Positions 3,703 through 28,006 of a stretch of DNA of 55,971 nt are shown one piece after another (position 1 is the first letter of the stretch; every line of letters starts with the position of its first letter). A program made the position numbers and the translations under genes. The DNA is from an uncultured Gemmatimonadota bacterium (GTDB taxonomy: Bacteria; Blakebacterota; Blakebacteria; Blakebacterales; Blakebacteraceae). The notes under the pieces are model-generated. The model made no database searches and was not told the DNA's origin. It was given only the letters and a program-made list of their open reading frames with translations. The stretch covers positions 1-55,971 of the forward strand of contig CAZWVF010000009.1 of the NCBI GenBank assembly GCA_964637695.1, given 5' to 3'.

Positions 3703-5978
<2,276 letters not shown>

Positions 5979-6017
5979 TTTATTTCCGGGTCTATAATAG
6001 GAACAGCACCCGACGGC

Positions 6018-6183
6018 ATGGTGCCCTGTCACGCAACAACCGTGGCATTCGAGCGGCGCCGTATCCCGACCGGCTGCGTTGCGTCTCCTCGCCATAGCCA
6101 CCGCTATGTCTCGTCGCCACGCCTTGTCGGTCAAGCACGGCATCACTCTCGGTGCCGACACTTGCTACGTGACATGACACTAG
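6018..6183. mobile_element. 166-bp MITE-like repeat, copy 1
   Basis: 141/166 ungapped identity (hand-aligned) to 44036..44201; imperfect terminal inverted repeats (ATGGTGCCCTGTCACG / CGTGACATGACACTAG); central hairpin CATAGC-CACC-GCTATG at 6093..6108; no coding capacity. Confidence 0.75.
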
Positions 6184-7417
6184 CATCCCCGTCAACGGCA
6201 AGTGCCCCATCGATTTCAGATGCAATCACGATCTCCCGATAGACATCCTGCAGCGGCACTCCCTTTTCCAGTGCCTTCTGCCGGCACGCTTCGTACTCGG
6301 GATGAACCCGCCACCGGTTGCCATCCGGAAGAGCGGACAGCTTGACAGTAATTGTTCCGAGGCTGGTCTTGAGTCTGCCGCGTGCCCGTGCCAGGACCAT
6401 GCGGCCGGTATGGGAGATACGCATGCCCAGGGTGCCGGTTTCCTCGAAAACGAGCTGCTGCAGTTTCGATAGATCGGGGGGATCACACAGGACAGTAAGG
6501 TGAACACCGGGACGACCCTTCTTCATTACAACAGGAGTCACATAGGCATCACGGGCGCCTCCATCCAGCAGGCGCTCTATCATGTAGGGCCAGATTTCAG
6601 GCAGGGTATCGTCCACGGTTGTCTCGATCACCGCAATCCGGTTGCCGCCATGCGTATCGACATCCTCCAGAGTGCCCAGGGTGGCCCGGAGAAGATTGGG
6701 GCGCCCCTCGAGCTGCCGTGTTCCCGCCCCGTAGCCTACCCGTTCCGGGGTCAGGGAGAGGCTGGTGGTGAAGGAATCGACCAGGGTGGTCAGCATTGCT
6801 GCTCCCGTCGGTGTAACAAGTTCGAAGGGGATATCGACTCTCCTGATCGGTACCCCCTCAAGCAGATATGCTGTGGCAGGGGCGGGTACGGGTAGAATCC
6901 CGTGGGCCGAATGAACCTCTCCGTGGCCATCCGATGGAGGTATCGAGAGAATCGTATCCACTTCCAGACTTAAAACGGCTGCTGTTCCGCAGACTACATC
7001 CACAACTGCATCGAGTGCACCAGTTTCGTGCAGGTGAATCCTACCCGGATCAGATCCGTGCACTCTGGCCTCGGCTGCTCCCAGCCTCGTGAAAACCTCA
7101 GCGGCCTTCCCCTTCACGGCCGTGTCGAGTGAAGGGGTATCGAGCCGGTCGAGGAGGTCCTCCACCGTCGTACTGTGGCCTTGCCAGCCACCATCCGTAT
7201 CGGGGATTTCGAGTTCACCGTCTATCACTACATCAACTTTCGTGGCTTCGATCCCGCCCCGCTCGGTGCGTGTCACTTTCAACTGCACGCGATCACCGAG
7301 CCCCAGCGCCTCTATCTGTTTCTCGAGCACTCCGACTTCCACCCCCAGATCAACCAGCGCTCCCAGAAGCATGTCACCGGAGATACCTGCAAACGGTTCA
7401 AGGAAAAGAACTCTCAC
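6143..7417 (-). CDS. larC: Nickel pincer cofactor biosynthesis protein LarC
   Basis: AGISGDMLLGAL, HLHETGALDAVVDV, AHGILPVPAPAT, ELVTPTGAA, ETTVDD, MKKGRPG, ETGTLGMR, PEYEAC; GTG 7417 overlaps larB stop (GTGA). Confidence 0.92.
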   Translation of the reverse strand: MRVLFLEPFAGISGDMLLGALVDLGVEVGVLEKQIEALGLGDRVQLKVTRTERGGIEATKVDVVIDGELEIPDTDGGWQGHSTTVEDLLDRLDTPSLDTAVKGKAAEVFTRLGAAEARVHGSDPGRIHLHETGALDAVVDVVCGTAAVLSLEVDTILSIPPSDGHGEVHSAHGILPVPAPATAYLLEGVPIRRVDIPFELVTPTGAAMLTTLVDSFTTSLSLTPERVGYGAGTRQLEGRPNLLRATLGTLEDVDTHGGNRIAVIETTVDDTLPEIWPYMIERLLDGGARDAYVTPVVMKKGRPGVHLTVLCDPPDLSKLQQLVFEETGTLGMRISHTGRMVLARARGRLKTSLGTITVKLSALPDGNRWRVHPEYEACRQKALEKGVPLQDVYREIVIASEIDGALAVDGDASVMSRSKCRHRE

Positions 7418-8184
7418 GACGAATTCCATACCCTGGCAATGCGCGCGGCGGCACAGCCTGCGCCGAAGCCGTTATCGATATTGACCACCGTTATCCCGGT
7501 GGCACACGAAGAGAGCATGCCGAGCAGTGAAGCAAATCCACCGGCGGAAACACCGTAACCCACGCTGGTTGGAACGGCTACGATCGGACGCCTGACGAGA
7601 CCGCCGACAACACTCGGCAGTGCCCCCTCCATGCCGGCTGCCACAATCAGTACCGCCATCGTGTCGAGCTCCTCCCTGCGTGCCAGAAGCCGGTGAAGTC
7701 CCGCTACACCCACATCGTAGATCCTGTGTGCCTCCATTCCCATCGTTTCGGCGGTCAGGGCAGCTTCTTCGGCGACAGGGATATCAGAGGTTCCGGCCGA
7801 TACAACCGCAACAGGACCACTCATCACCACTCCATCGAGCGAACCTTCAGGTATGTACCTGACGATCCTGGCTACGGGAAAGTGCTCTGCATCCGGTACA
7901 GCTTCGATTATGGCAGCGGCCCTCTCCTCATCCACCCTTGTTGCCAGCATCGCGTTTCCTCTCCCGGCCATCTTTGCGGCTATCGCACTGCACTGCTCGA
8001 CACTCTTCCCCTCACCGAGAAGAACTTCAGGGAATCCACATCTCAGTTCGCGGTGAGTATCCACTGTCGCGAAATCACCCACTCTCTCGAAGGGCAATTC
8101 CTTCAACCGCTGCAGTACCTGCTCTACATCCACCTTGCCCGCCGCAAGATCATTCAGGAGACCAGTCAGATCAGGTTCGTGCAC
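7414..8184 (-). CDS. larB: Nickel pincer cofactor biosynthesis protein LarB
   Basis: DTHRELRCGFPEVLLGEGK, SAGTSDIPVAEEA, DVGVAGLHRL, AGMEGALPSVVGGL, PTSVGYG, VVNIDNGFGAG. Confidence 0.95.
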   Translation of the reverse strand: MHEPDLTGLLNDLAAGKVDVEQVLQRLKELPFERVGDFATVDTHRELRCGFPEVLLGEGKSVEQCSAIAAKMAGRGNAMLATRVDEERAAAIIEAVPDAEHFPVARIVRYIPEGSLDGVVMSGPVAVVSAGTSDIPVAEEAALTAETMGMEAHRIYDVGVAGLHRLLARREELDTMAVLIVAAGMEGALPSVVGGLVRRPIVAVPTSVGYGVSAGGFASLLGMLSSCATGITVVNIDNGFGAGCAAARIARVWNSS

Positions 8185-20488: not shown

Positions 20489-20518
20489 TTCAAATAATCC
20501 CGATAATCGTATTATAAT
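20489..20518 (+). promoter_or_regulatory. Putative sigma70 promoter of the accessory operon
   Basis: TATAAT at 20513..20518 with TTCAAA 18 nt upstream, in an AT-rich intergenic stretch. Confidence 0.45.
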
Positions 20519-20650
20519 CGAAGAGGCATCCCCTAAGTATTTATCTTACAACAAGTTATGTGTTCCGGTTCATTGACATTCTCTCTGGCACATCTGTTGC
20601 GGTGCTTCTTGACAGCAAATAGAGCCCCCGAAGCAGTGGGAGAGCGTGCC

Positions 20651-21517
20651 ATGCTGGAATACTTGAAAATCGAATATATGTGCGCCAGGGAATTCGCCAG
20701 ACTTATCTGCCGCGATTCCAGATACCTGGGCCTGACAGTGTCCATGTATGGCAGGACCCTGAACAGTCCAACTCGGGCTCAGATGCTGCGGGCAGCCTAC
20801 TGTCTGGCCAGGTTGATCGACGATGTACTGGACGGAGATATTATTATTCCGGGTGATCCCGAGGTTTACGTCTTCTATCTGATGCATCAGGCTAAAGCCG
20901 GAATGATCGCAGGCCGGAACCTGCCATCCAGACTCGGACGTTTTGTATTCGAGAATATAAACCGCTTCGGACGCAACAGTGAAATACCGGCCGAATATCT
21001 GCACGTGCTGGTAGAGTCGATGTTAATCGATCGAAGAAGGGCCCGTAAGAAACTGCTCCTATCCGATCGTCAGCTGCACACTCATCTCGTCAAAACCCTT
21101 GAAGCCGCCCACAATGCCGCATTGTGCATTTCGAACGCCCGGGCCAGGGCACCTGACATTCCTCACTTGATCCGAGCTCAGGCCTCTCTCTATACCCTTC
21201 GCGATCTTAAAACAGATATCTCACGGGGACTGGTTAACATTCCTGAAGATGTGGTTACCTTGGCACGTGACCAAGGATGCAATAGTCTATCATACGATGC
21301 GCTATTCTCAACGTCAGCTGTCAAGAAATGGATCGCTGATGAATTTGCGTTCGGGAGAGGGCATTTAGAGGCTGCCGGTCACCAATTGGCAGCAATTAAA
21401 GATCGAAGAACATCTATGATCGTGAGACCTCTTCACAGGGGCCTCAAGCACCTGGCCCGCAGGCTCCCGCCGGTTCTGGGAGTCGATATTTCGGTCAATC
21501 TGATTCCGGTCGAGTGA
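20651..21517 (+). CDS. Squalene/phytoene synthase-family (class I isoprenoid synthase fold) protein, divergent
   Basis: AAYCLARLIDDVLD (DDxxD), ESMLID, TLRDLKTD...RGLVNIP; ATG 20651 has a GGGAGAG SD (ORF is open from 20558). Confidence 0.7.
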   Translation: MLEYLKIEYMCAREFARLICRDSRYLGLTVSMYGRTLNSPTRAQMLRAAYCLARLIDDVLDGDIIIPGDPEVYVFYLMHQAKAGMIAGRNLPSRLGRFVFENINRFGRNSEIPAEYLHVLVESMLIDRRRARKKLLLSDRQLHTHLVKTLEAAHNAALCISNARARAPDIPHLIRAQASLYTLRDLKTDISRGLVNIPEDVVTLARDQGCNSLSYDALFSTSAVKKWIADEFAFGRGHLEAAGHQLAAIKDRRTSMIVRPLHRGLKHLARRLPPVLGVDISVNLIPVE

Positions 21518-21534
21518 GGTGAGGGAGATAAAGC

Positions 21535-22386
21535 GTGATGCTGATGCAATTCGACAAATGGTACCTCGATTGTCAGACCGACCTGGAATTCGGTTACTAC
21601 TATGTATGCCGGCTTTCCATCGGAAGATTGAGGCTGATCAGCAGCGAAGTCCATCATTACGGCACAGAGAAGGTTGTGCACTGGAGCCGGTTGGGACGCG
21701 CATATGCTTCAGGGCTGAGGGAGATGAAGGGAGCCGGGGCAGAGATCAGGGCCCGATCGAACTGCACGAAGTTAAGGCTGGCAAATGGAGAGGGATCCCT
21801 CAACGGATCGTGGCGTTCAACGATTCATCCCCTGCCCAGATACCGGCGACCTCTCTATATGGATGATAACGGCTGGTGCGACTGGAAAGTGTGGTCTCCA
21901 TTCTCGGAGGTCTCCCTGTCGATATCGCCGGACACGACAATCCGGGGATCGGGTTATGTGGACCTGGTCCGGATCACTATCCCCTCCTGGCGGATCCCGT
22001 TCACTTCTCTCCATTGGGGGCGACTCTTCTCGAAGGAGAAATGGTTGATACTCCTTAACCTGCTGACCCCCGGCATGAATACGGCGTGCTCAATAGAGAG
22101 CAGCGGAACCTGCAGCAATGTGGAAATAGATGTAGATCGGAGGGATAATGGTGAGATAGATACATTCAGGTGGTCGATCGATGGTCGTCCACTGAACGCG
22201 GAGGTGGTCCGGGTGCTTCAGAGAGGCCCTGTACTGAACGGTGAACGATTCGGGCGGCTGATCCCGGCCCGTCTGCTCGCCAGACTTGGATCGGGAGGAT
22301 TTGAGGAAAAGTACTGGGTCAACGCTCGGCTGAACGGCTCCGATTACTCGGGTCCGATGGAAGAGGTACGATGGAATGAACAGTGA
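21535..22386 (+). CDS. CrtC/AttH-like (lipocalin-type hydratase/cyclase fold) protein
   Basis: N-terminal KWYLD, DWKVWSPFSEV, RGSGYVD and LHWGR resemble the WWYxD, W..aP..V, GxGYxD and WxWxR motifs of carotenoid 1,2-hydratases. Confidence 0.5.
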   Translation: MMLMQFDKWYLDCQTDLEFGYYYVCRLSIGRLRLISSEVHHYGTEKVVHWSRLGRAYASGLREMKGAGAEIRARSNCTKLRLANGEGSLNGSWRSTIHPLPRYRRPLYMDDNGWCDWKVWSPFSEVSLSISPDTTIRGSGYVDLVRITIPSWRIPFTSLHWGRLFSKEKWLILLNLLTPGMNTACSIESSGTCSNVEIDVDRRDNGEIDTFRWSIDGRPLNAEVVRVLQRGPVLNGERFGRLIPARLLARLGSGGFEEKYWVNARLNGSDYSGPMEEVRWNEQ

Positions 22387-22990
22387 AATCCTGTGCAGCT
22401 GCAAAAACCTTGCCAAGGCGTATGGAAGACATACGGTTCTGGAGGATTGTTCCCTGACCGTTGCCAGTGGTGAACTGGTGGGCCTTGTCGGCGAAAACGG
22501 TTCTGGAAAATCAACTTTGATAAGGTGCCTGCTGGGATTCACCAGACCCTCAGGTGGAATGGTGGAGGTCAGTGGAAAAGTCGGCTACTGCCCGCAGGAG
22601 GATTACCTCAATCCTGCCTACATGGTGGATGAGCACCTTTCGCTGGCCTGTGCCATCTATGGCAGACATGACCATATAGACATGACCTACGTGAACGCAC
22701 TCACCGATCGGCTCCGCCTGGATGAATACAGGGAATGTCCTGTGAAAGATCTGAGTGAAGGCACGCGTCAGAAATTGAAGTTCCTCACCTCGATCATACA
22801 TAAGCCCACTCTGCTCTTAATGGACGAACCTTATGGTGGATTCGACTGGAACATGTACCTGGTCTTCTGGGATCTGATCGGGGAGCTATGCGAGACGGGC
22901 GCCGGGGTGCTGCTGATTACCCATCTTATCTACGACCGTCATCACTTCAACAGGATCTACGAGCTTCAGGGGGGGCGACTCGATGCCTGA
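22376..22990 (+). CDS. ABC transporter ATP-binding protein
   Basis: Walker A GENGSGKST, Q-loop YCPQ, signature LSEGTRQK, Walker B LLLMDEP, H-loop ITH. Confidence 0.92.
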   Translation: MNSEILCSCKNLAKAYGRHTVLEDCSLTVASGELVGLVGENGSGKSTLIRCLLGFTRPSGGMVEVSGKVGYCPQEDYLNPAYMVDEHLSLACAIYGRHDHIDMTYVNALTDRLRLDEYRECPVKDLSEGTRQKLKFLTSIIHKPTLLLMDEPYGGFDWNMYLVFWDLIGELCETGAGVLLITHLIYDRHHFNRIYELQGGRLDA

Positions 22991-23771
22991 TGCGCGATCT
23001 GGCAATCCAGCAACGCGGCTCTTCCTGCTCTCCTTCCTGGAGCTGTGGCGGAATCGATTCGGGCTTCTTCTGCTGCTGATCATCCCGCCGATTTTCCTGG
23101 GGATAGTCGAGTGGACATCAGGTGAGATCCCATTACCGATCGAACTCTTTTTCAAGGGTGAAACCGAGCGGGTGCTGCTGTCACAGAGAGACATATCCCT
23201 GGTATTCATCGGAGCGGCTGTGAGCGGATTCCTGACGGCCTATTACGCGATCCTGCTATTTCAACGGAATTTCGAATACTTCAGGCACTGCATCGGGATG
23301 GGACTTACCCCGACCAGTTTTATCGCTGCGCGTTTCCTCTTCTTTCTCACCGTCGTTGCCGCCCTCGCTCTATTCATCACGATGGTTGTAGGTATCATGT
23401 CACCCCTGAAGAATCCCGGTGGAGTATTCCTGGGATTCCTTCTTGTCGGAGCGGTGTACGGCGCCTACGGAGGTATGGTCGGGCTGGTTTGCAGGGATTT
23501 CATGGTAGCGGTTCTCTGTGTCGTCCTGCTGGCCAATCTCGATGCAGGCTGGCTGCAGAATCCTGTTTTCTATACTACCGCACAGGAAACCGCCATTATC
23601 CACTGGTTGCCTGCCTTCTATCCCAGCCAGGTAGTATTTGCGGCCGCTTTTACGGAGCGGATGAATATGTGGGCGGTTACTCTCAGTGTCCTCTATGGAA
23701 CGATCCTCTTTCTATCAATGCTGGTAATCGCGCACATACGGATCCGTTCCCTACGCAGGTGGTGGAAGTAG
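22983..23771 (+). CDS. ABC-2-type exporter permease
   Basis: About six hydrophobic segments, coupled to the ATPase (8-nt overlap). Confidence 0.75.
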   Translation: MPDARSGNPATRLFLLSFLELWRNRFGLLLLLIIPPIFLGIVEWTSGEIPLPIELFFKGETERVLLSQRDISLVFIGAAVSGFLTAYYAILLFQRNFEYFRHCIGMGLTPTSFIAARFLFFLTVVAALALFITMVVGIMSPLKNPGGVFLGFLLVGAVYGAYGGMVGLVCRDFMVAVLCVVLLANLDAGWLQNPVFYTTAQETAIIHWLPAFYPSQVVFAAAFTERMNMWAVTLSVLYGTILFLSMLVIAHIRIRSLRRWWK

Positions 23772-23773
23772 TC

Positions 23774-25252
23774 GTGGGAAATGCGGCAGCGCATGATCGA
23801 ATCTCCTCCTTCTCCGGCGGAGCATACATTGCCCTTTTCGCACTGGGTGCTCCCCTCCTCTATCTTGTTTTTGGTAAAGCTGCGGACCGCGCAATCGGCA
23901 ACTTCTTCTCAGCGCCCCCGCTCGTGCTGCAGATGGCGGGGGGAATACTCACAATTGCGGGCCTGGCATTTATCATTATCTCGATAATCCTGCTTAACAC
24001 GATCGGTAGGGGATTGCCGATCTCCTCTTTACCACCCGTAGAGCTCGTTACCGCCGGTCCATACGGCATATCCAGGCATCCCATTTATCTGGGTACTATG
24101 CTGACTTTCGCAGGTATCTCCATGATGATCGGTTCATTCTGGTGCACGCTGCTTGCCGCACCCCTTCTCGGATTTTTCTACTTCACATATGCGGTAGGAA
24201 TCGAGGAACCGATCCTTATTTCACGATATGGACAGAGATACAGCGATTATCAGAATCGAACGGCGCTCAGCTTTGAGTTCCCCTTGAGGAAGCGTCTCTA
24301 TCGAATCATCTCCTTCCTGCTGGAAAAACTGTCTGGAGTAATAAACAGGCCTAAGATAGTGCGCCGAGGCAATTTCATCTTCTTCTGGGGATACGGGATA
24401 TGGGTGGCGACCGGTGCGATTTTAGGGCTGACTGTAATGGAAGTTGTCTTGATCTCATTGGGAAGGCCGGCCAGTGATGCGGCGTGGGTGGTAGCCGTAG
24501 TCATGGTAAGCGGCCTGGTAGGAGCCCGCCTGTTGTGGCGTACAGGATTTGCAGTACATCACGGAACCGGTTTTACCCGCTCTGCCTGGAAAGTCGGATT
24601 TGTATCGTGGGGAGTGATGACCGGCTATCTCGTTGGATTGCCTCTGCTCGCCTGGAAAATGAATGTCTCTCCATACCTCTTTTTCGATGTGGTTTTCCCC
24701 TCTGTAATGATAACCCATCCCTTCGGACGGATAGGCTGCGTATTCTACGGATGCTGTTACGGCAAGGAGACGACAAGCGGGGCCCGGATCCGATATGAGC
24801 ACCCCGACTTGAAGGCAGTCAGAGAAGGCAGGGTCAATCCCGAATCACTGAGACCTGCCCAGTTGATCTCGGCAGTGAACGGCGCCCTGATCGCCGCACT
24901 GGTTTTCGGAATCTGGTATTCGATCCCGCTGCCGATGGGTGTTCCGGCTGCCCTGGCGGCTGCCATGTATGGACTGATGCGGATTGGAGAGGAATGGCTT
25001 CGAACTCAGAACAGAGTGATGTGGGGACTCGTTTCTCCCGCCCAGCTTGTGGCCCTCCTGCTGGTCCTGGTGGGTGTGGGCCACCTCCTGTGGATACCAA
25101 TCGGTGGAGGACATATCGTTCACCCGGCTCTCAGTGAAGTTCTTGACGTCTCTGTCACCGCTCAGATACATCTGCTTCTCCTGATCGTTTGCGGTGTGAT
25201 TTCCCTCTTTGCGAGCAGCTACCATTACAGGGCGGTGGGACGATGGAAATGA
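23774..25252 (+). CDS. Fusion of PEMT/ICMT-family membrane methyltransferase and Lgt-like (prolipoprotein diacylglyceryl transferase family) domain
   Basis: N half: LVTAGPYGISRHPIYLG...IEEPILISRYGQRYSDY; C half: GRIGCVFYGCCYG, RPAQL, YGLMRIGEEWLR; GTG 23774 follows the permease stop by 2 nt. Confidence 0.75.
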   Translation: MGNAAAHDRISSFSGGAYIALFALGAPLLYLVFGKAADRAIGNFFSAPPLVLQMAGGILTIAGLAFIIISIILLNTIGRGLPISSLPPVELVTAGPYGISRHPIYLGTMLTFAGISMMIGSFWCTLLAAPLLGFFYFTYAVGIEEPILISRYGQRYSDYQNRTALSFEFPLRKRLYRIISFLLEKLSGVINRPKIVRRGNFIFFWGYGIWVATGAILGLTVMEVVLISLGRPASDAAWVVAVVMVSGLVGARLLWRTGFAVHHGTGFTRSAWKVGFVSWGVMTGYLVGLPLLAWKMNVSPYLFFDVVFPSVMITHPFGRIGCVFYGCCYGKETTSGARIRYEHPDLKAVREGRVNPESLRPAQLISAVNGALIAALVFGIWYSIPLPMGVPAALAAAMYGLMRIGEEWLRTQNRVMWGLVSPAQLVALLLVLVGVGHLLWIPIGGGHIVHPALSEVLDVSVTAQIHLLLLIVCGVISLFASSYHYRAVGRWK

Positions 25253-26613
25253 CGGATAACAGAAGAGAGATATTGCAGGTGGAAGCACCCGCCTACGCCA
25301 ACAGGTACCTGCACTGGTACGGCTGCAGCCTTCACGAAATCGCCCGACAGCACGGCACGCCATCACACGTCGGGTGCTCCGAAGCAGTAGAAGACTCGCT
25401 GGACCTGTTTCATTCCGCATTCGCAGCTGCGGATCTCACCGTAGAGGTCAGGTATTCTGTAAAGACAAATCCACTGCCTGCGTTTCTTACAACTCTTGCC
25501 GATCTGGGAGCTGGATTCGAAGTCTGTTCCGGCTACGAACTGGCGCTGGTCAAAGAGCTGGGAGTTGAAGGAAAGAGAATAGTAGCAACCGGTCTCCGCG
25601 AGGGTTTTCCATTCGCCCGAGAGGCTTGTGAAACAGGTGTTGATATGCTCACGGTTGCTACCGCGGGTCAGCTGAAGTCGATCATATCAGATATCAAGAA
25701 CCTGCCTGGAACCCTCCCTCTCGGTTTAACCATATGCCCCGAGCTCCTGAGAGGCAGGTGGGACCTGACACTCAACACGGGGGCAAAAGGGGCCGCTATC
25801 GGGTTCCGCCCCGGCTCACCCCTGCTGGATGAAGCGATTAGGACCATTGCCTCCCACAGGCAGCTGGAACTGGTCGGTCTTCACATGCACATCGGTTCAG
25901 GAATCCGTTCGGCCGCACCTTACCTCAAGGCCATAAAGATCCTTGAGAAGGTGATCATGGCGGCGGCCCGACTGGGCAAACCGGTAACCATGGTAGATAT
26001 AGGTGGGGGCTACGGCCTCCGCTCGACTCCGGTGCTGGGAGCATGGAAGATCGTCTCCTCTATCCTGGGCCCCGGAGGTTCGAATGCCTCCAATTCCTCA
26101 GCAGGATCCATTCTGAACGATGTTGCCGAAATGGTGTCACAATCGTTCGATCGGCTGCAGAGAGTGGGGATACGTCCCGAGAAACTCATCGCCGAACCTG
26201 GTCGCATCATCTCAGGTCCATGCCAGCTTCTGCTCCTTTCAGTCGTCGACATGATCGACAGGGGTCGCAACGAGCGTTTCCTGCTCTGTGACGGGGGTTC
26301 AATGGCGATCTCTCCTATGCTGATGGCCGAGGGACACCGTCTGATGAGCCTTGTGGAACCGGATAGAGAACTGTTGCGCTACCGGGTACTCGGCAATCTG
26401 CCAACCTCTCTCGACAGGGTCTCGGCATCTGCACTGCTTCCGGCCATGCGCGCCGGAGATCGTATCGCGGTGCTTGACACCGGAGCATACTTCATATCGA
26501 TGAACAATACATTTATCGGGCCGCGCCCTCCTGTAATCTGGATAGAGAACAAGAGTTCCAGAATCGCAAGAAGACGGGAAACCGAGGTAGAGGTTTTCAA
26601 CCGTGACGAATGA
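25249..26613 (+). CDS. PLP-dependent fold-type III enzyme (diaminopimelate/ornithine decarboxylase family), divergent
   Basis: YSVKTN (PLP lysine), EVCSGYEL, HMHIGSG, DIGGGYG, EPGRIISG, GAYFISM; ATG 25249 overlaps the upstream stop (ATGA). Confidence 0.85.
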   Translation: MTDNRREILQVEAPAYANRYLHWYGCSLHEIARQHGTPSHVGCSEAVEDSLDLFHSAFAAADLTVEVRYSVKTNPLPAFLTTLADLGAGFEVCSGYELALVKELGVEGKRIVATGLREGFPFAREACETGVDMLTVATAGQLKSIISDIKNLPGTLPLGLTICPELLRGRWDLTLNTGAKGAAIGFRPGSPLLDEAIRTIASHRQLELVGLHMHIGSGIRSAAPYLKAIKILEKVIMAAARLGKPVTMVDIGGGYGLRSTPVLGAWKIVSSILGPGGSNASNSSAGSILNDVAEMVSQSFDRLQRVGIRPEKLIAEPGRIISGPCQLLLLSVVDMIDRGRNERFLLCDGGSMAISPMLMAEGHRLMSLVEPDRELLRYRVLGNLPTSLDRVSASALLPAMRAGDRIAVLDTGAYFISMNNTFIGPRPPVIWIENKSSRIARRRETEVEVFNRDE

Positions 26614-28006
26614 AAGAGGCAGCTTCAGTAGAGAATCCGGCACGCGCCTGCTCGGTTCTCTTAAGGAAGGTTCATATGCATGGCGGGCTCTCGATCCCCT
26701 TCAGAGAGCCCGTACGATAAGGCAGCTGCGCCGGTTGATGGCCCGCCGGTCGGATGAACTGGCCCGCCGGATAGCTGAGATGACAGAGAGACCTCTCTAC
26801 GAAGCACTGACGCAGGAGGTTTTTCCAGCCCTCGAGATGGCTCACTACTGCGAACGGAGGTTTGCACGAGTTCTGCATCCCCGAACTTCTCTCTACCTGC
26901 GCCCCGGTTTCCTGCGAAACAGGCATACCGTGCATTGGGAACCGTACGGCACGATCGCCGTGATAACCCCCTTCAATTTCCCCTTCTCCCTGGCGATGAT
27001 GAGCGCAGTTTATCTGGCGACGGCGGGCAACACCATCGTCATAAAGCCATCGGAGGCAATGCCCGATATCTCCGACCTGATAAAGGAACTGCTCTCAGAG
27101 ACCGGGCTGGCGCCCTCGATCATCAACGTACTGGATGGCGGCCCTGAGGCGGCCACCTTTCTCGCACAATCGGATTTGATTTCGAAGGTGGTCTTCTTCG
27201 GTGGAAAGAGCGGGGGTAATGAACTGGCCCACATCTGTTCGCGGCGCGGAATTCCATTCGTACTGGAGCTGGGGGGGGGCAGTTCAGCGATAGTTCTGGC
27301 AGATGCTGACCTGAAGAGAACTGCTGCGGGGATAGCCTGGAGCGGATTTTACTCTGGAGGTCATTCGTGCGTAGGTACAGACCGTGTATTCGTGGAATCC
27401 ACTGCAGAAGCTCGATTTCTTCAGCTGCTGGTTAAGGAGTCACAGAGGGTCTGGAATGAGGACATTGACACTTCGATGCTCGAGGCTCCCATCTCGGGAC
27501 ATATCCTCAAAGCCATCGATAATGGAGCCCGCTACATAGCGACTCCGAAGGGAGCCGATGCCGGTCCAGGTGAGACTCCACCTGGGCTGCTTGCTGGAGT
27601 CACACCTCGATCCTCTCTGCTTAAAGAGGAGTTGTTCACTCCGCTGATAGCAATCTGTACCGTCACGAGTGGAGAGGAGGCCGTGCAGATCGCCAACGAC
27701 AGCTGTCAGATGCTGGGTGCCTCGATCTGGACAAGGAATAAACGACGTGCGCACAAACTGGCCCGCGATCTGCGTTCATCCATGATATGGATCAACGACA
27801 CCAGTTTCGGGCTGCCGAACCTGCCGTGGGGGGGATGGGGAGAGGCGGGATGGGGCTCCATATTCTCGCGATTCTCGCTGCACGAAGCCGCCCGGCTTAA
27901 GTGGATCAGTACCAGTCCTGCCAGAGGACGCCGCCCATGGTGGCATCCATATTCCGAGATGAAGATGCGCCTTGCGCGCCTGGCGACCCTCTACTACAGG
28001 AAGTGA
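26603..28006 (+). CDS. Aldehyde dehydrogenase family protein
   Basis: ITPFNFP, GNTIVIKPSE, LELGG, catalytic Cys in GGHSCVG, EELFTP, IWINDT, LPWGG, C-terminal PWWHPYS. Confidence 0.9.
   Translation: MTNERGSFSRESGTRLLGSLKEGSYAWRALDPLQRARTIRQLRRLMARRSDELARRIAEMTERPLYEALTQEVFPALEMAHYCERRFARVLHPRTSLYLRPGFLRNRHTVHWEPYGTIAVITPFNFPFSLAMMSAVYLATAGNTIVIKPSEAMPDISDLIKELLSETGLAPSIINVLDGGPEAATFLAQSDLISKVVFFGGKSGGNELAHICSRRGIPFVLELGGGSSAIVLADADLKRTAAGIAWSGFYSGGHSCVGTDRVFVESTAEARFLQLLVKESQRVWNEDIDTSMLEAPISGHILKAIDNGARYIATPKGADAGPGETPPGLLAGVTPRSSLLKEELFTPLIAICTVTSGEEAVQIANDSCQMLGASIWTRNKRRAHKLARDLRSSMIWINDTSFGLPNLPWGGWGEAGWGSIFSRFSLHEAARLKWISTSPARGRRPWWHPYSEMKMRLARLATLYYRK

Follow-up and report, generated by a model that had tools for sequence, protein, structure and literature searches.

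A membrane protein joining an ICMT/PEMT-type methyltransferase to an Lgt-like domain of predicted inverted orientation in uncultured bacteria

Introduction

In the current view, Lgt is essential, faces the periplasm, serves the single purpose of maturing lipoproteins and offers a target for antibiotics. What does an Lgt-like domain do when it is covalently joined to a membrane methyltransferase? The question is raised by a gene in a stretch of 55,971 nucleotides (contig CAZWVF010000009.1 of assembly GCA_964637695.1) from an uncultured Gemmatimonadota bacterium; the whole of this stretch is referred to below as the window. A sequence-only reading of the locus had taken the gene product for a fusion distinct from the housekeeping Lgt, an enzyme of lipid transfer plus methylation, and had suggested an analogue of protein prenylation plus methylation as one possibility. 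The analysis reported here supports that interpretation in part: the fusion and the non-housekeeping character of its Lgt domain were borne out, and the protein-directed idea was not.

23774..25252, plus strand: fusion gene for a putative bifunctional membrane protein of 492 aa, PEMT/ICMT-type methyltransferase plus Lgt-like transferase predicted to be inverted

Results

A single reading frame encodes two membrane domains

The open reading frame (ORF) of the fusion is unbroken from a GTG codon at 23774 to the stop codon at 25250-25252. Between the stop codon of the permease gene upstream and this start codon lie 2 nt, and both start position and length are shared by homologues. The protein is divided as follows.

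23933..24238, plus strand: S-adenosylmethionine (SAM) methyltransferase domain of PEMT/ICMT type, aa 54-155, with R101HPIY105 and E144E145 (Pfam PEMT)
24212..24385, plus strand: K/R-rich linker predicted to be cytoplasmic, aa 147-204, with an amphipathic helix at 172-190 and the Lgt N-terminal beta-hairpin (charge count, model)
24392..25093, plus strand: Lgt-like domain, aa 207-440, with seven helices, predicted to be inverted relative to E. coli Lgt (Pfam LGT, 5azb alignment, positive-inside analysis)
24725..24763, plus strand: variant Lgt signature motif G318-R-I-G-C322-V-F-Y-G-C327-C328-Y-G330 (family alignment)
25172..25249, plus strand: extra eighth transmembrane helix, aa 467-482, and C-terminal motif S-Y-H484-x-x-x-V-G489-R-W (AlphaFold 2 model, family alignment)

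Pfam assigns PEMT to aa 54-155 with 48 bits (cut-off 25) and LGT to aa 207-440 with 91.2 bits (cut-off 24.9); judged by these scores, both matches are far above chance level. An AlphaFold model of the fusion, computed with 42 homologues as input, reached a pLDDT of 92.7 and a pTM of 0.91. Compared by Foldseek, it matched E. coli Lgt (5azb; E 4e-6, TM-score 0.66 on the target) as well as the solved ICMTs 5v7p, 4a2n and 5vg9 (Foldseek probability 1.00; TM-score 0.55 on Ma-ICMT 4a2n), so that the fold prediction and structural alignment proposed in the sequence-only reading recovered both folds (5azb, 4a2n). The motifs quoted there were all found: R101-H-P-I-Y105, G-I-E144-E145-P, RYGQRYSDY, G318-RIGCVFYGCCYG-330, R-P-A-Q363-L and Y399-GLMRIGEEWLR410.

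An assembly artefact was considered and rejected, because the fusion is present in >50 clusters of independent assemblies and its linker is conserved and confidently modelled. These protein clusters span many uncultured phyla, and the fusion is genuine. Separate domains in other assemblies had been named as a possible sign of artefact; such forms are natural in Myxococcota, where they represent a different architecture.

The methyltransferase domain belongs to the ICMT/PEMT clan

Among 42 aligned family members, R101, P103, Y105 and E144 are invariant and H102 and E145 are conserved in at least 90%. Profile searches of the PDB with the methyltransferase domain matched the ICMTs 5vg9 and 4a2n. 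Other models of the clan stayed under their cut-offs on the N-terminal domain (ICMT, 22.8 versus 24; DUF1295, 16.6 versus 20.4), and the fusion scores far under every cut-off of the NCBIfam equivalogs ICMT, MddA and LmtA. Taken together, the Pfam score, the RHPxY and EE motifs of the SAM site and the modelled ICMT fold place the domain in the ICMT/PEMT clan, and its residues indicate that a SAM site of this type is intact in the fusion. The methylated atom could be N, O or S, since the clan holds O-methyltransferases (ICMT, LmtA), N-methyltransferases (PEMT) and S-methyltransferases (MddA).

The Lgt-like domain keeps the donor-binding residues and departs from the canonical signature

Profile alignment to 5AZB showed that R143, G154, Y235, R239, E243 and R246 of E. 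coli Lgt are kept as R319, G330, Y399, R403, E407 and R410, whereas N146, N149 and E151 are replaced by C322, Y325 and C327. The H103GGL region at the start of the third transmembrane helix reads VGFVSWG in the fusion, and none of the 42 members has a His there. This agrees with the residue mapping made from the letters alone (G, R, G, Y, R and E kept, N146 and E151 changed to Cys, H103 lost). In E. coli Lgt, H103 and E151 are required; E151A and E151Q variants are inactive, and E151 contacts phosphatidylglycerol (PG) (PMC4728403). Where the E. coli signature G142-RLGNFINGELW-G154 has N146 and E151, the fusion reads GRIGCVFYGCCYG and retains the Arg and the Gly residues; across the 42 members, R319, G321, C322, Y325, G326, C327, C328 and G330 of this motif are invariant. 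The hydrogen-bond network Y235/R239/E243/R246 is present as Y399/R403/E407/R410, with R403 and R410 invariant. By alignment, the Lgt-type cavity keeps the residues that hold the donor phosphate and glycerol C3 (R143, Y235, R239, E243, R246). H484 and G489 are also invariant in the 42 members, and the eighth helix and C-terminal motif are absent from single-domain homologues of canonical type.

The same RxGCxxYGCC motif, with H103 changed to Tyr, recurs in single-domain Lgt homologues of ~250 aa, one of which scores above the TIGR00544 cut-off (139 versus 118.9). Contrary to what the sequence-only reading implied, the Cys substitutions alone are therefore no mark of a new function, and we dropped them as proof of new chemistry. 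Stronger arguments against a housekeeping Lgt are the predicted inversion, the eighth helix with its H..VGxW motif and the conserved operon with its partner fusions, all described below.

The single-domain homologues merit a description of their own. They read GRxGCFFYGCCYG instead of GRLGNFINGELWG and GFVFYGG instead of GMSFHGG, and were found in L046, L047, L050, L053, L057, L062 and ~25 other loci (for example L062:9962-10708), in Omnitrophota, Kiritimatiellia, Verrucomicrobia and Lentisphaerae and in one bin labelled Methanosarcinales. Judged by sequence, they are plausibly true Lgts, canonical in other respects, in which residues essential in E. coli (H103, E151) have been replaced naturally, and so bear on the mechanism of Lgt and on inhibitor design.

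The Lgt-like domain is predicted to be inverted in the membrane

Membrane orientation was assessed by taking the helices from the AlphaFold model and counting the Lys and Arg residues (K+R) loop by loop in the 42 aligned members. When the N-terminus is placed inside, the whole protein has a mean of 31.1 K+R in 'in' loops versus 3.1 in 'out' loops; for the Lgt domain alone the means are 14.0 and 2.3, a bias common to all 42 members. Where loops correspond to periplasmic ones of Lgt, they carry 11.4 K+R, versus 1.7 in the remaining loops, again in all 42. The K/R-rich loops match three periplasmic loops of the E. coli enzyme, namely the H103 loop, the 'head' after the signature motif and the loop between helices 6 and 7. 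In E. coli Lgt all three face the periplasm and carry negative charge, on the same side as the opening of the central cavity (PMC4728403). As a control, 32 single-domain Cys-motif homologues in the same alignment gave the canonical bias in 29 cases, and their three short loops hold 7.1 K+R versus 1.7 in the fusion family.

Canonical Lgt has seven helices, its N-terminus out, its C-terminus in, and a periplasmic cavity and head; for the fusion, eight helices and a reversed charge bias are predicted instead. The methyltransferase domain is predicted to consist of four helices with both ends in the cytoplasm, as its SAM site requires. The 58-residue linker has a mean of 10.8 K+R across the family, and its helix 172-190 is charged and does not span the membrane. 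An inverted arrangement would be explained by the four-helix methyltransferase, the span-free linker and the eighth helix (aa 467-482), which brings the C-terminus back to the cytoplasmic side; this location is just what is needed in those relatives whose C-terminus is fused to cytoplasmic PLP (pyridoxal phosphate) enzymes. Charge bias and model thus lead us to a strong prediction: the Lgt domain has an inverted orientation, its catalytic face being turned to the cytoplasm and adjacent to the SAM site.

Could the protein nevertheless be a variant of the ordinary housekeeping Lgt with an extra domain, its N-terminal part perhaps even a reductase of the steroid-reductase/DUF1295 clan? The Pfam LGT match, the single-domain Cys-motif homologues that reach the Lgt equivalog score, the lack of any second LGT-family ORF in the 56-kb window and weak similarities to DUF1295 and sterol reductases all fit such a protein. 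Set against them are scores far under the curated Lgt equivalog cut-offs (TIGR00544, 33 versus 118.9; NF000778, 83.9 versus 334), the absence of H103 and replacement of E151, both needed in E. coli (PMC4728403), and a predicted inversion that would put the site away from exported lipoproteins. The operon context differs as well, the family is patchily distributed, the operon of the nearest relative is variable, and the ICMT/PEMT SAM site retains its invariant EE. We consider a housekeeping role very improbable, the least credible of the explanations weighed here, and on this point the sequence-only reading, which had denied such a role, holds for the scores, the lost H103, the Cys at N146 and E151 and the predicted inversion alike.

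The fusion gene lies in a seven-gene operon

The fusion is the fifth of seven genes at 20558-28006, whose successive junctions are an 18-nt gap, an 11-nt overlap, an 8-nt overlap, a 2-nt gap, a 10-nt overlap and an 11-nt overlap. To judge from this spacing, in which genes overlap or abut, the operon is tightly and translationally coupled. Its other features are the following.

20489..20518, plus strand: promoter-like site TTCAAA-18-TATAAT, ~40 bp upstream of the first operon gene (consensus scan, 10/12 matches; weak evidence)
20558..21517, plus strand: divergent squalene/phytoene-synthase-like (SQS-like) protein, 319 aa, with both Asp-rich motifs (YCLARLIDDVLDGD; RDLKTDISRGLVNIP) (Pfam SQS_PSY)
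21535..22386, plus strand: AttH/CrtC-like double beta-barrel protein, 283 aa, with the fold of hydratases, lyases and cyclases of hydrophobic substrates (predicted structure)
22376..22990, plus strand: ABC transporter ATPase, 204 aa, of DrrA/NodI-like exporter type (Pfam ABC_tran, 87.9 bits; best NCBIfam matches DrrA and NodI)
22983..23771, plus strand: ABC exporter permease, 262 aa, a multi-pass membrane protein (hydrophobic sequence; no family match)
25243..26613, plus strand: fold-type III PLP decarboxylase-like enzyme (Pfam Orn_Arg_deC_N, 114.9 bits), overlapping the fusion gene by 10 nt
26603..28006, plus strand: NAD(P)-dependent aldehyde dehydrogenase (ALDH), 467 aa (Pfam Aldedh, 274.7 bits)

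The SQS_PSY score of the first gene is 27.9 bits versus a cut-off of 26; its Asp-rich motifs are invariant in five intact orthologues, and a sequence search of the PDB with its product gave no match. Pfam and PDB sequence searches with the AttH-like protein were likewise empty, and its fold was identified only through the predicted structure (AF2 pLDDT 89.7), which matched AttH (2ich), CghA/Phm7/Fsa2, kievitone hydratase and 25-phosphosteroid lyase at Foldseek E values of 1e-8 to 1e-10. Members of the AttH/CrtC fold include carotenoid and kievitone hydratases, fungal Diels-Alderases and 25-phosphosteroid lyase. Besides the window copy, an AttH-like profile found the protein in 29 related loci, including distant clades, clade C (see below) and split forms. 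The ABC ATPase accompanies the fusion in 17 related loci besides the window, and the permease is conserved together with the ATPase in 18.

The nearest PDB entries of the decarboxylase are diaminopimelate decarboxylases, and it scores 176 versus 298 on the LysA equivalog. Its PLP Lys and its HxHxGS, DIGGG, EPGR and GAY motifs are conserved in 23 of 23 orthologues, and in all 23 operon-linked orthologues the active-site Cys (CESGD in LysA; C360 in ornithine decarboxylase, ODC) is replaced by Pro (LPTSLD). ODC altered at C360 is reportedly a precedent for aldehyde formation. Loss of the C-alpha proton donor makes PLP decarboxylases aldehyde-forming (PMC7497351). An aldehyde product would explain both the tight coupling and the occasional fusion to the ALDH, whose nearest relatives in the PDB are betaine-, amino- and trimethylaminobutyraldehyde dehydrogenases and which itself has the Glu of ELGG as well as the catalytic Cys motif. 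At the C-terminus of the ALDH (window 27850-28006), outside the Aldedh domain, there is a basic tail rich in Trp (…RGRRPWWHPYSEMKMRLARLATLYYRK), which may serve in membrane association.

The SQS-like gene was recovered in six related loci (~6 of ~35). In the nearest relative, a Gemmatimonadota metagenome-assembled genome (MAG; locus L002), it is found only as a shortened remnant (L002:9359-9901), and, in comparison with window 20558-23771, the AttH-like and ABC genes are missing there while the fusion, decarboxylase and ALDH are kept. These losses indicate that the operon is being remodelled in this lineage. The idea that the fusion acts on the operon's own lipid, as made by the SQS-like enzyme, does not carry over to the family, because only part of the family has the gene.

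These genes nonetheless suggest an isoprenoid-lipid pathway, in which donor or acceptor would come from the SQS-like and AttH/CrtC-like enzymes and an isoprenoid (di)phosphate rather than PG would be coupled to an amino-acid head group. The SQS/PSY-like gene heads the operon with its Asp-rich motifs intact, relatives of the universal AttH/CrtC-fold partner, among them a phosphate lyase, use prenyl or steroid substrates, and the residue that selects PG in E. coli Lgt, E151, is replaced. Yet the gene is present in few loci and has decayed in the very relative whose fusion, decarboxylase and ALDH stay intact; moreover, the Lgt residues that contact diacylglycerol and phosphate are conserved, and the partners PlsC and PAP2 (see below) point to glycerolipids. 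We regard the isoprenoid pathway as improbable, though better placed than a housekeeping role.

The operon is flanked by housekeeping genes common to the window and its collinear relative. Two further observations were made elsewhere in the window. At 6143-8184 (minus strand), a LarC-like (Ni_insertion) gene adjoins an AIR-carboxylase/LarB-like gene, suggesting synthesis of the nickel-pincer cofactor; the pair is unrelated to the fusion. The enolase ORF at 3703-5187 (minus strand) has ~70 surplus N-terminal residues before Enolase_N and overlaps the ORF 4989-6161 (no family match), so that the true enolase start probably lies further downstream than listed.

Related loci differ in their PLP enzymes and contain natural partner fusions

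The window proteins were searched against the ORFs of 83 related loci. The operon recurs in Gemmatimonadota, Zixibacteria, Bacteroidota/Rhodothermales, Ignavibacteria, Acidobacteriota and Aminicenantes. Clade A has the gene order of the window, (SQS) - AttH - ABC - ABC - fusion - decarboxylase - ALDH, and clade B (Acidobacteriota, Aminicenantes) is a variant with an extra PAP2_3 gene. Clade C, from Myxococcota/Polyangia, some Gemmatimonadota and one Actinomycetota MAG, is without decarboxylase and ALDH; directly upstream of its fusion gene, in nine of nine loci, lies a PLP enzyme of the family of D-cysteine desulfhydrase, 1-aminocyclopropane-1-carboxylate (ACC) deaminase, cysteate sulfo-lyase (DcyD/CuyA) and XcbE. 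XcbE, an enzyme of bacterial coenzyme M biosynthesis, cleaves a cysteine S-conjugate such that the sulfur stays on the partner molecule (PMC9457059). Partner genes are also found joined to the fusion or to one another.

L026: AttH-like - PEMT - LGT fusion; P0093 has a matching ~300-aa N-terminal extension of unassigned identity
L012, P0034, P0073, P0075: PEMT - LGT - decarboxylase fusion
L029: decarboxylase - ALDH fusion
P0137, P0199, possibly more among ~640-aa proteins: PEMT - PAP2_3 - LGT fusion
P0098: DcyD-like PLP enzyme (PALP) - PEMT - LGT fusion
Some Myxococcales and Thermodesulfobacteriota: PEMT - PlsC acyltransferase fusion beside a separate LGT gene of inverted type

The PEMT - PlsC fusions lie at L039:9719-11470, L042:9827-11500, L044:4906-7425 and L048:9737-11551. 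Beside the operon in three distant loci, and absent from the window, is a radical SAM protein of ~400 aa (L001:14420-15559, L011:6368-7561, L026:11339-12580), whose best NCBIfam matches, weak without exception, include the tetraether lipid synthase Tes. A peptide substrate of RiPP (ribosomally synthesized and post-translationally modified peptide) type, considered on account of a 53-aa ORF with the radical SAM gene in L001, was rejected, the 53-aa ORF lacking conservation and the radical SAM gene occurring in only three loci.

PLP enzymes that need a free alpha-amino acid, glycerolipid enzymes (PlsC, PAP2) and an exporter together argue for a small-molecule lipid pathway rather than protein modification. 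This bears on a CaaX-like alternative, in which a Cys of a cytoplasmic or C-terminally anchored protein would be lipidated and the ICMT-like domain would methylate a C-terminal carboxylate. Such a pathway would account for the ICMT-type fold and motif and for two active sites predicted to be cytoplasmic, as in eukaryotic CaaX processing; an Lgt-like step, not assigned to any enzyme, has been postulated for MYXO-CTERM proteins in the myxosortase paper (PMC11980579), and an Rce1-like gene lies ~7 kb from one homologue. However, the operon is without a conserved protease or candidate substrate gene, its fused or conserved partners are PLP enzymes for free amino acids, PAP2, PlsC, a lipid-binding barrel and an ABC exporter, and the MYXO-CTERM cysteine is periplasmic, which misfits a cytoplasm-facing site. 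We judge the CaaX-like pathway quite unlikely, only a little less so than a housekeeping Lgt, and the analogue of protein prenylation plus methylation put forward earlier is hard to reconcile with obligate partners such as PLP enzymes for a free alpha-amino acid, PAP2, PlsC and the ABC exporter.

The family is large and known from uncultured organisms

A word-indexed search returned 54 clusters, nearly all of which contain the two domains in ~490 aa. When 1.84 billion representatives were searched exhaustively with HMMER, 476 were matched at E<=1e-30, of which ~55 are full-length fusions (>370 bits). The GTDB genomes were scanned at one genome per species; there a single-sequence query matched nothing and an alignment-based query worked. 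The motif R[ILT]GCx[FTS]YGCC occurs in 264 stretches of these genomes, 242 of which encode a relative of the fusion protein, and the relatives with the fusion are all MAGs. Phyla and lineages with the fusion are Gemmatimonadota, Zixibacteria, Balneolales/Rhodothermales, Bacteroidota, Ignavibacteria, Acidobacteriota, Aminicenantes, Planctomycetota, Myxococcota/Polyangia and Actinomycetota. In a Gemmatimonadota MAG collinear with the window, the housekeeping proteins are 67-89% identical to those of the window and the fusion 61%. Both folds are known. New are their fusion, the inversion predicted for the Lgt domain, the eighth helix together with the C-terminal motif, and the operon; the searchable literature yielded no description of any of these, and in it only the myxosortase paper speaks of an Lgt-like step.

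Discussion

What might the fusion do? We propose that it is a bifunctional integral membrane enzyme of an uncharacterised family, acting in a cytoplasm-facing pathway that builds the head group of a small-molecule lipid, a proposal that we hold to be evenly poised between right and wrong. Most likely, the operon builds and exports a methylated membrane lipid, and there is a realistic chance that the family marks a lipid class not yet described. Lipid transfer plus methylation, with a thiol or amine as acceptor, as the sequence-only reading had offered, is in our view the most sensible interpretation.

In a first step, the Lgt-like domain would move a diacylglyceryl group from PG or a related phospholipid to a small cytoplasmic nucleophile of amino-acid type. 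This nucleophile would most probably be a thiol, that of cysteine or of a similar amino-thiol, and the products would be a thioether lipid and glycerol phosphate. In the clade of the window, the amino-acid part would then undergo PLP-dependent decarboxylation, possibly aldehyde-forming, followed by oxidation by the ALDH; in clade C, C-S beta-lyase chemistry would instead leave a lipid thiol. The fused domain would methylate the head group in a third step, and the ABC-2 type transporter would flip or export the product in a fourth. To our knowledge, thiol alkylation is the sole chemistry of the Lgt fold. For this reason, and because of the cysteine-desulfhydrase-type partner of clade C and the cleavage of a cysteine S-conjugate by XcbE, a thiol is the favoured acceptor; that it is indeed a thiol or cysteine is a tentative assignment, to which we give clearly less credence than to the pathway as a whole. 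Homocysteine methyltransferases have zinc sites formed by a Cys pair, and by likeness the three invariant Cys, perhaps with H484, could bind a thiol-activating metal, a speculation to which we attach low weight.

An acceptor hydroxyl would lead to a different product. The fusion could be an ether-type betaine-lipid synthase that moves diacylglyceryl to the hydroxyl of homoserine or serine and N-methylates the adduct through its PEMT domain, a BtaA/BtaB-independent route to phosphorus-free lipids resembling DGTS (diacylglyceryltrimethylhomoserine). Head-group attachment and N-methylation are exactly what the two fused domains offer, the best Pfam match of the N-terminal domain is to PEMT, an N-methyltransferase family, the ALDH resembles betaine- and trimethylaminobutyraldehyde dehydrogenases, and the taxa are environmental and often phosphate-limited. 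Lgt chemistry, though, is known for thiolate nucleophiles only; the DcyD-like beta-eliminating enzyme of clade C would undo an O-linked serine adduct, DGTS needs no PLP decarboxylase or ALDH, which leaves the PLP enzymes unexplained, and there is no match to families of BtaA/BtaB type. We consider a betaine-lipid synthase unlikely, if somewhat less so than the isoprenoid pathway.

Several points weigh against the small-molecule pathway that we prefer. Its topology has been predicted from charge bias and a model. Analogy underlies both the choice of donor lipid and the aldehyde-forming decarboxylase, and the PG-contacting E151 is replaced. The Cys motif, which also occurs in Lgt homologues with sequences indicating canonical orientation, by itself speaks for neither metal-assisted nor novel chemistry. 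Because the clades use different PLP enzymes, one methyl acceptor common to them is difficult to propose. The scheme also leaves the AttH-like barrel and the SQS-like enzyme unexplained; their presence could mean that the lipid is isoprenoid. Finally, the members of this uncharacterised family all come from uncultured organisms (MAGs).

With these reservations we put forward, as a possibility that we would not call probable, that an 'inside-out' Lgt with an ICMT-type methyltransferase is the core of a widespread pathway to cysteine-derived, methylated and phosphorus-free S-diacylglyceryl thioether lipids, exported to the surface by the ABC transporter, in Gemmatimonadota, Acidobacteriota, Bacteroidota/Rhodothermota, Ignavibacteria, Zixibacteria, Myxococcota and others. 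If this is true, the Lgt fold has a second role, in small-molecule lipid synthesis, in a large sister family of opposite orientation. Abundant soil and sediment phyla would then contain an undescribed lipid class that could matter for phosphorus economy and as a membrane biomarker, and also for innate-immune recognition, because S-diacylglyceryl-cysteine is the TLR2-active core of lipoproteins.

Comparison with known systems

With E. coli Lgt (5AZB/5AZC; PF01790, TIGR00544) the fusion shares the seven-helix fold, R143, Y235, R239, E243, R246, D129 and the signature Gly residues, and probably also the transfer of a diacylglyceryl (alkyl) group with a phosphodiester leaving group. Unlike that enzyme, it has C/Y/C at N146/N149/E151, is without H103GGL, possesses the eighth helix and the H..VGxW motif, and is predicted to lie in the opposite orientation; moreover, E. 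coli Lgt stands alone, whereas the fusion is joined to a methyltransferase in an operon with small-molecule and lipid enzymes. The single-domain Cys-motif homologues have RxGCxxYGCC and the loss of His103 in common with the fusion, and NF000778 is the closest NCBIfam model for both, but they are ~250 aa long with seven helices and a canonical positive-inside pattern, and are without methyltransferase, eighth helix and H484.

The methyltransferase half has the RHPxY and EE motifs in common with the helical, SAM-binding membrane fold of ICMT/Ste14, PEMT, MddA and LmtA (PDB 4A2N, 5V7P); it differs from this clan in having only four helices and in being covalently joined to a lipid transferase. 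The acceptor of ICMT is a carboxylate beside a thioether-linked lipid, and an S-lipidated cysteine derivative would offer the same. The PLP enzyme upstream of the fusion in clade C falls in the XcbE/DcyD/ACC-deaminase family at only 70-90 bits versus a cut-off of 450, and an XcbE-like enzyme is missing from the clade of the window, which has the decarboxylase and ALDH instead.

The betaine-lipid synthases BtaA/BtaB and the fused BTA1 follow the same logic: a single polypeptide or operon links diacylglycerol to an amino-acid head group, which is then methylated, and the resulting lipid is phosphorus-free. Their folds are unrelated to that of the fusion described here, being those of soluble SAM enzymes of Rossmann type, and they take the head group from SAM, with no Lgt-type transferase to capture it and no PLP enzymes.

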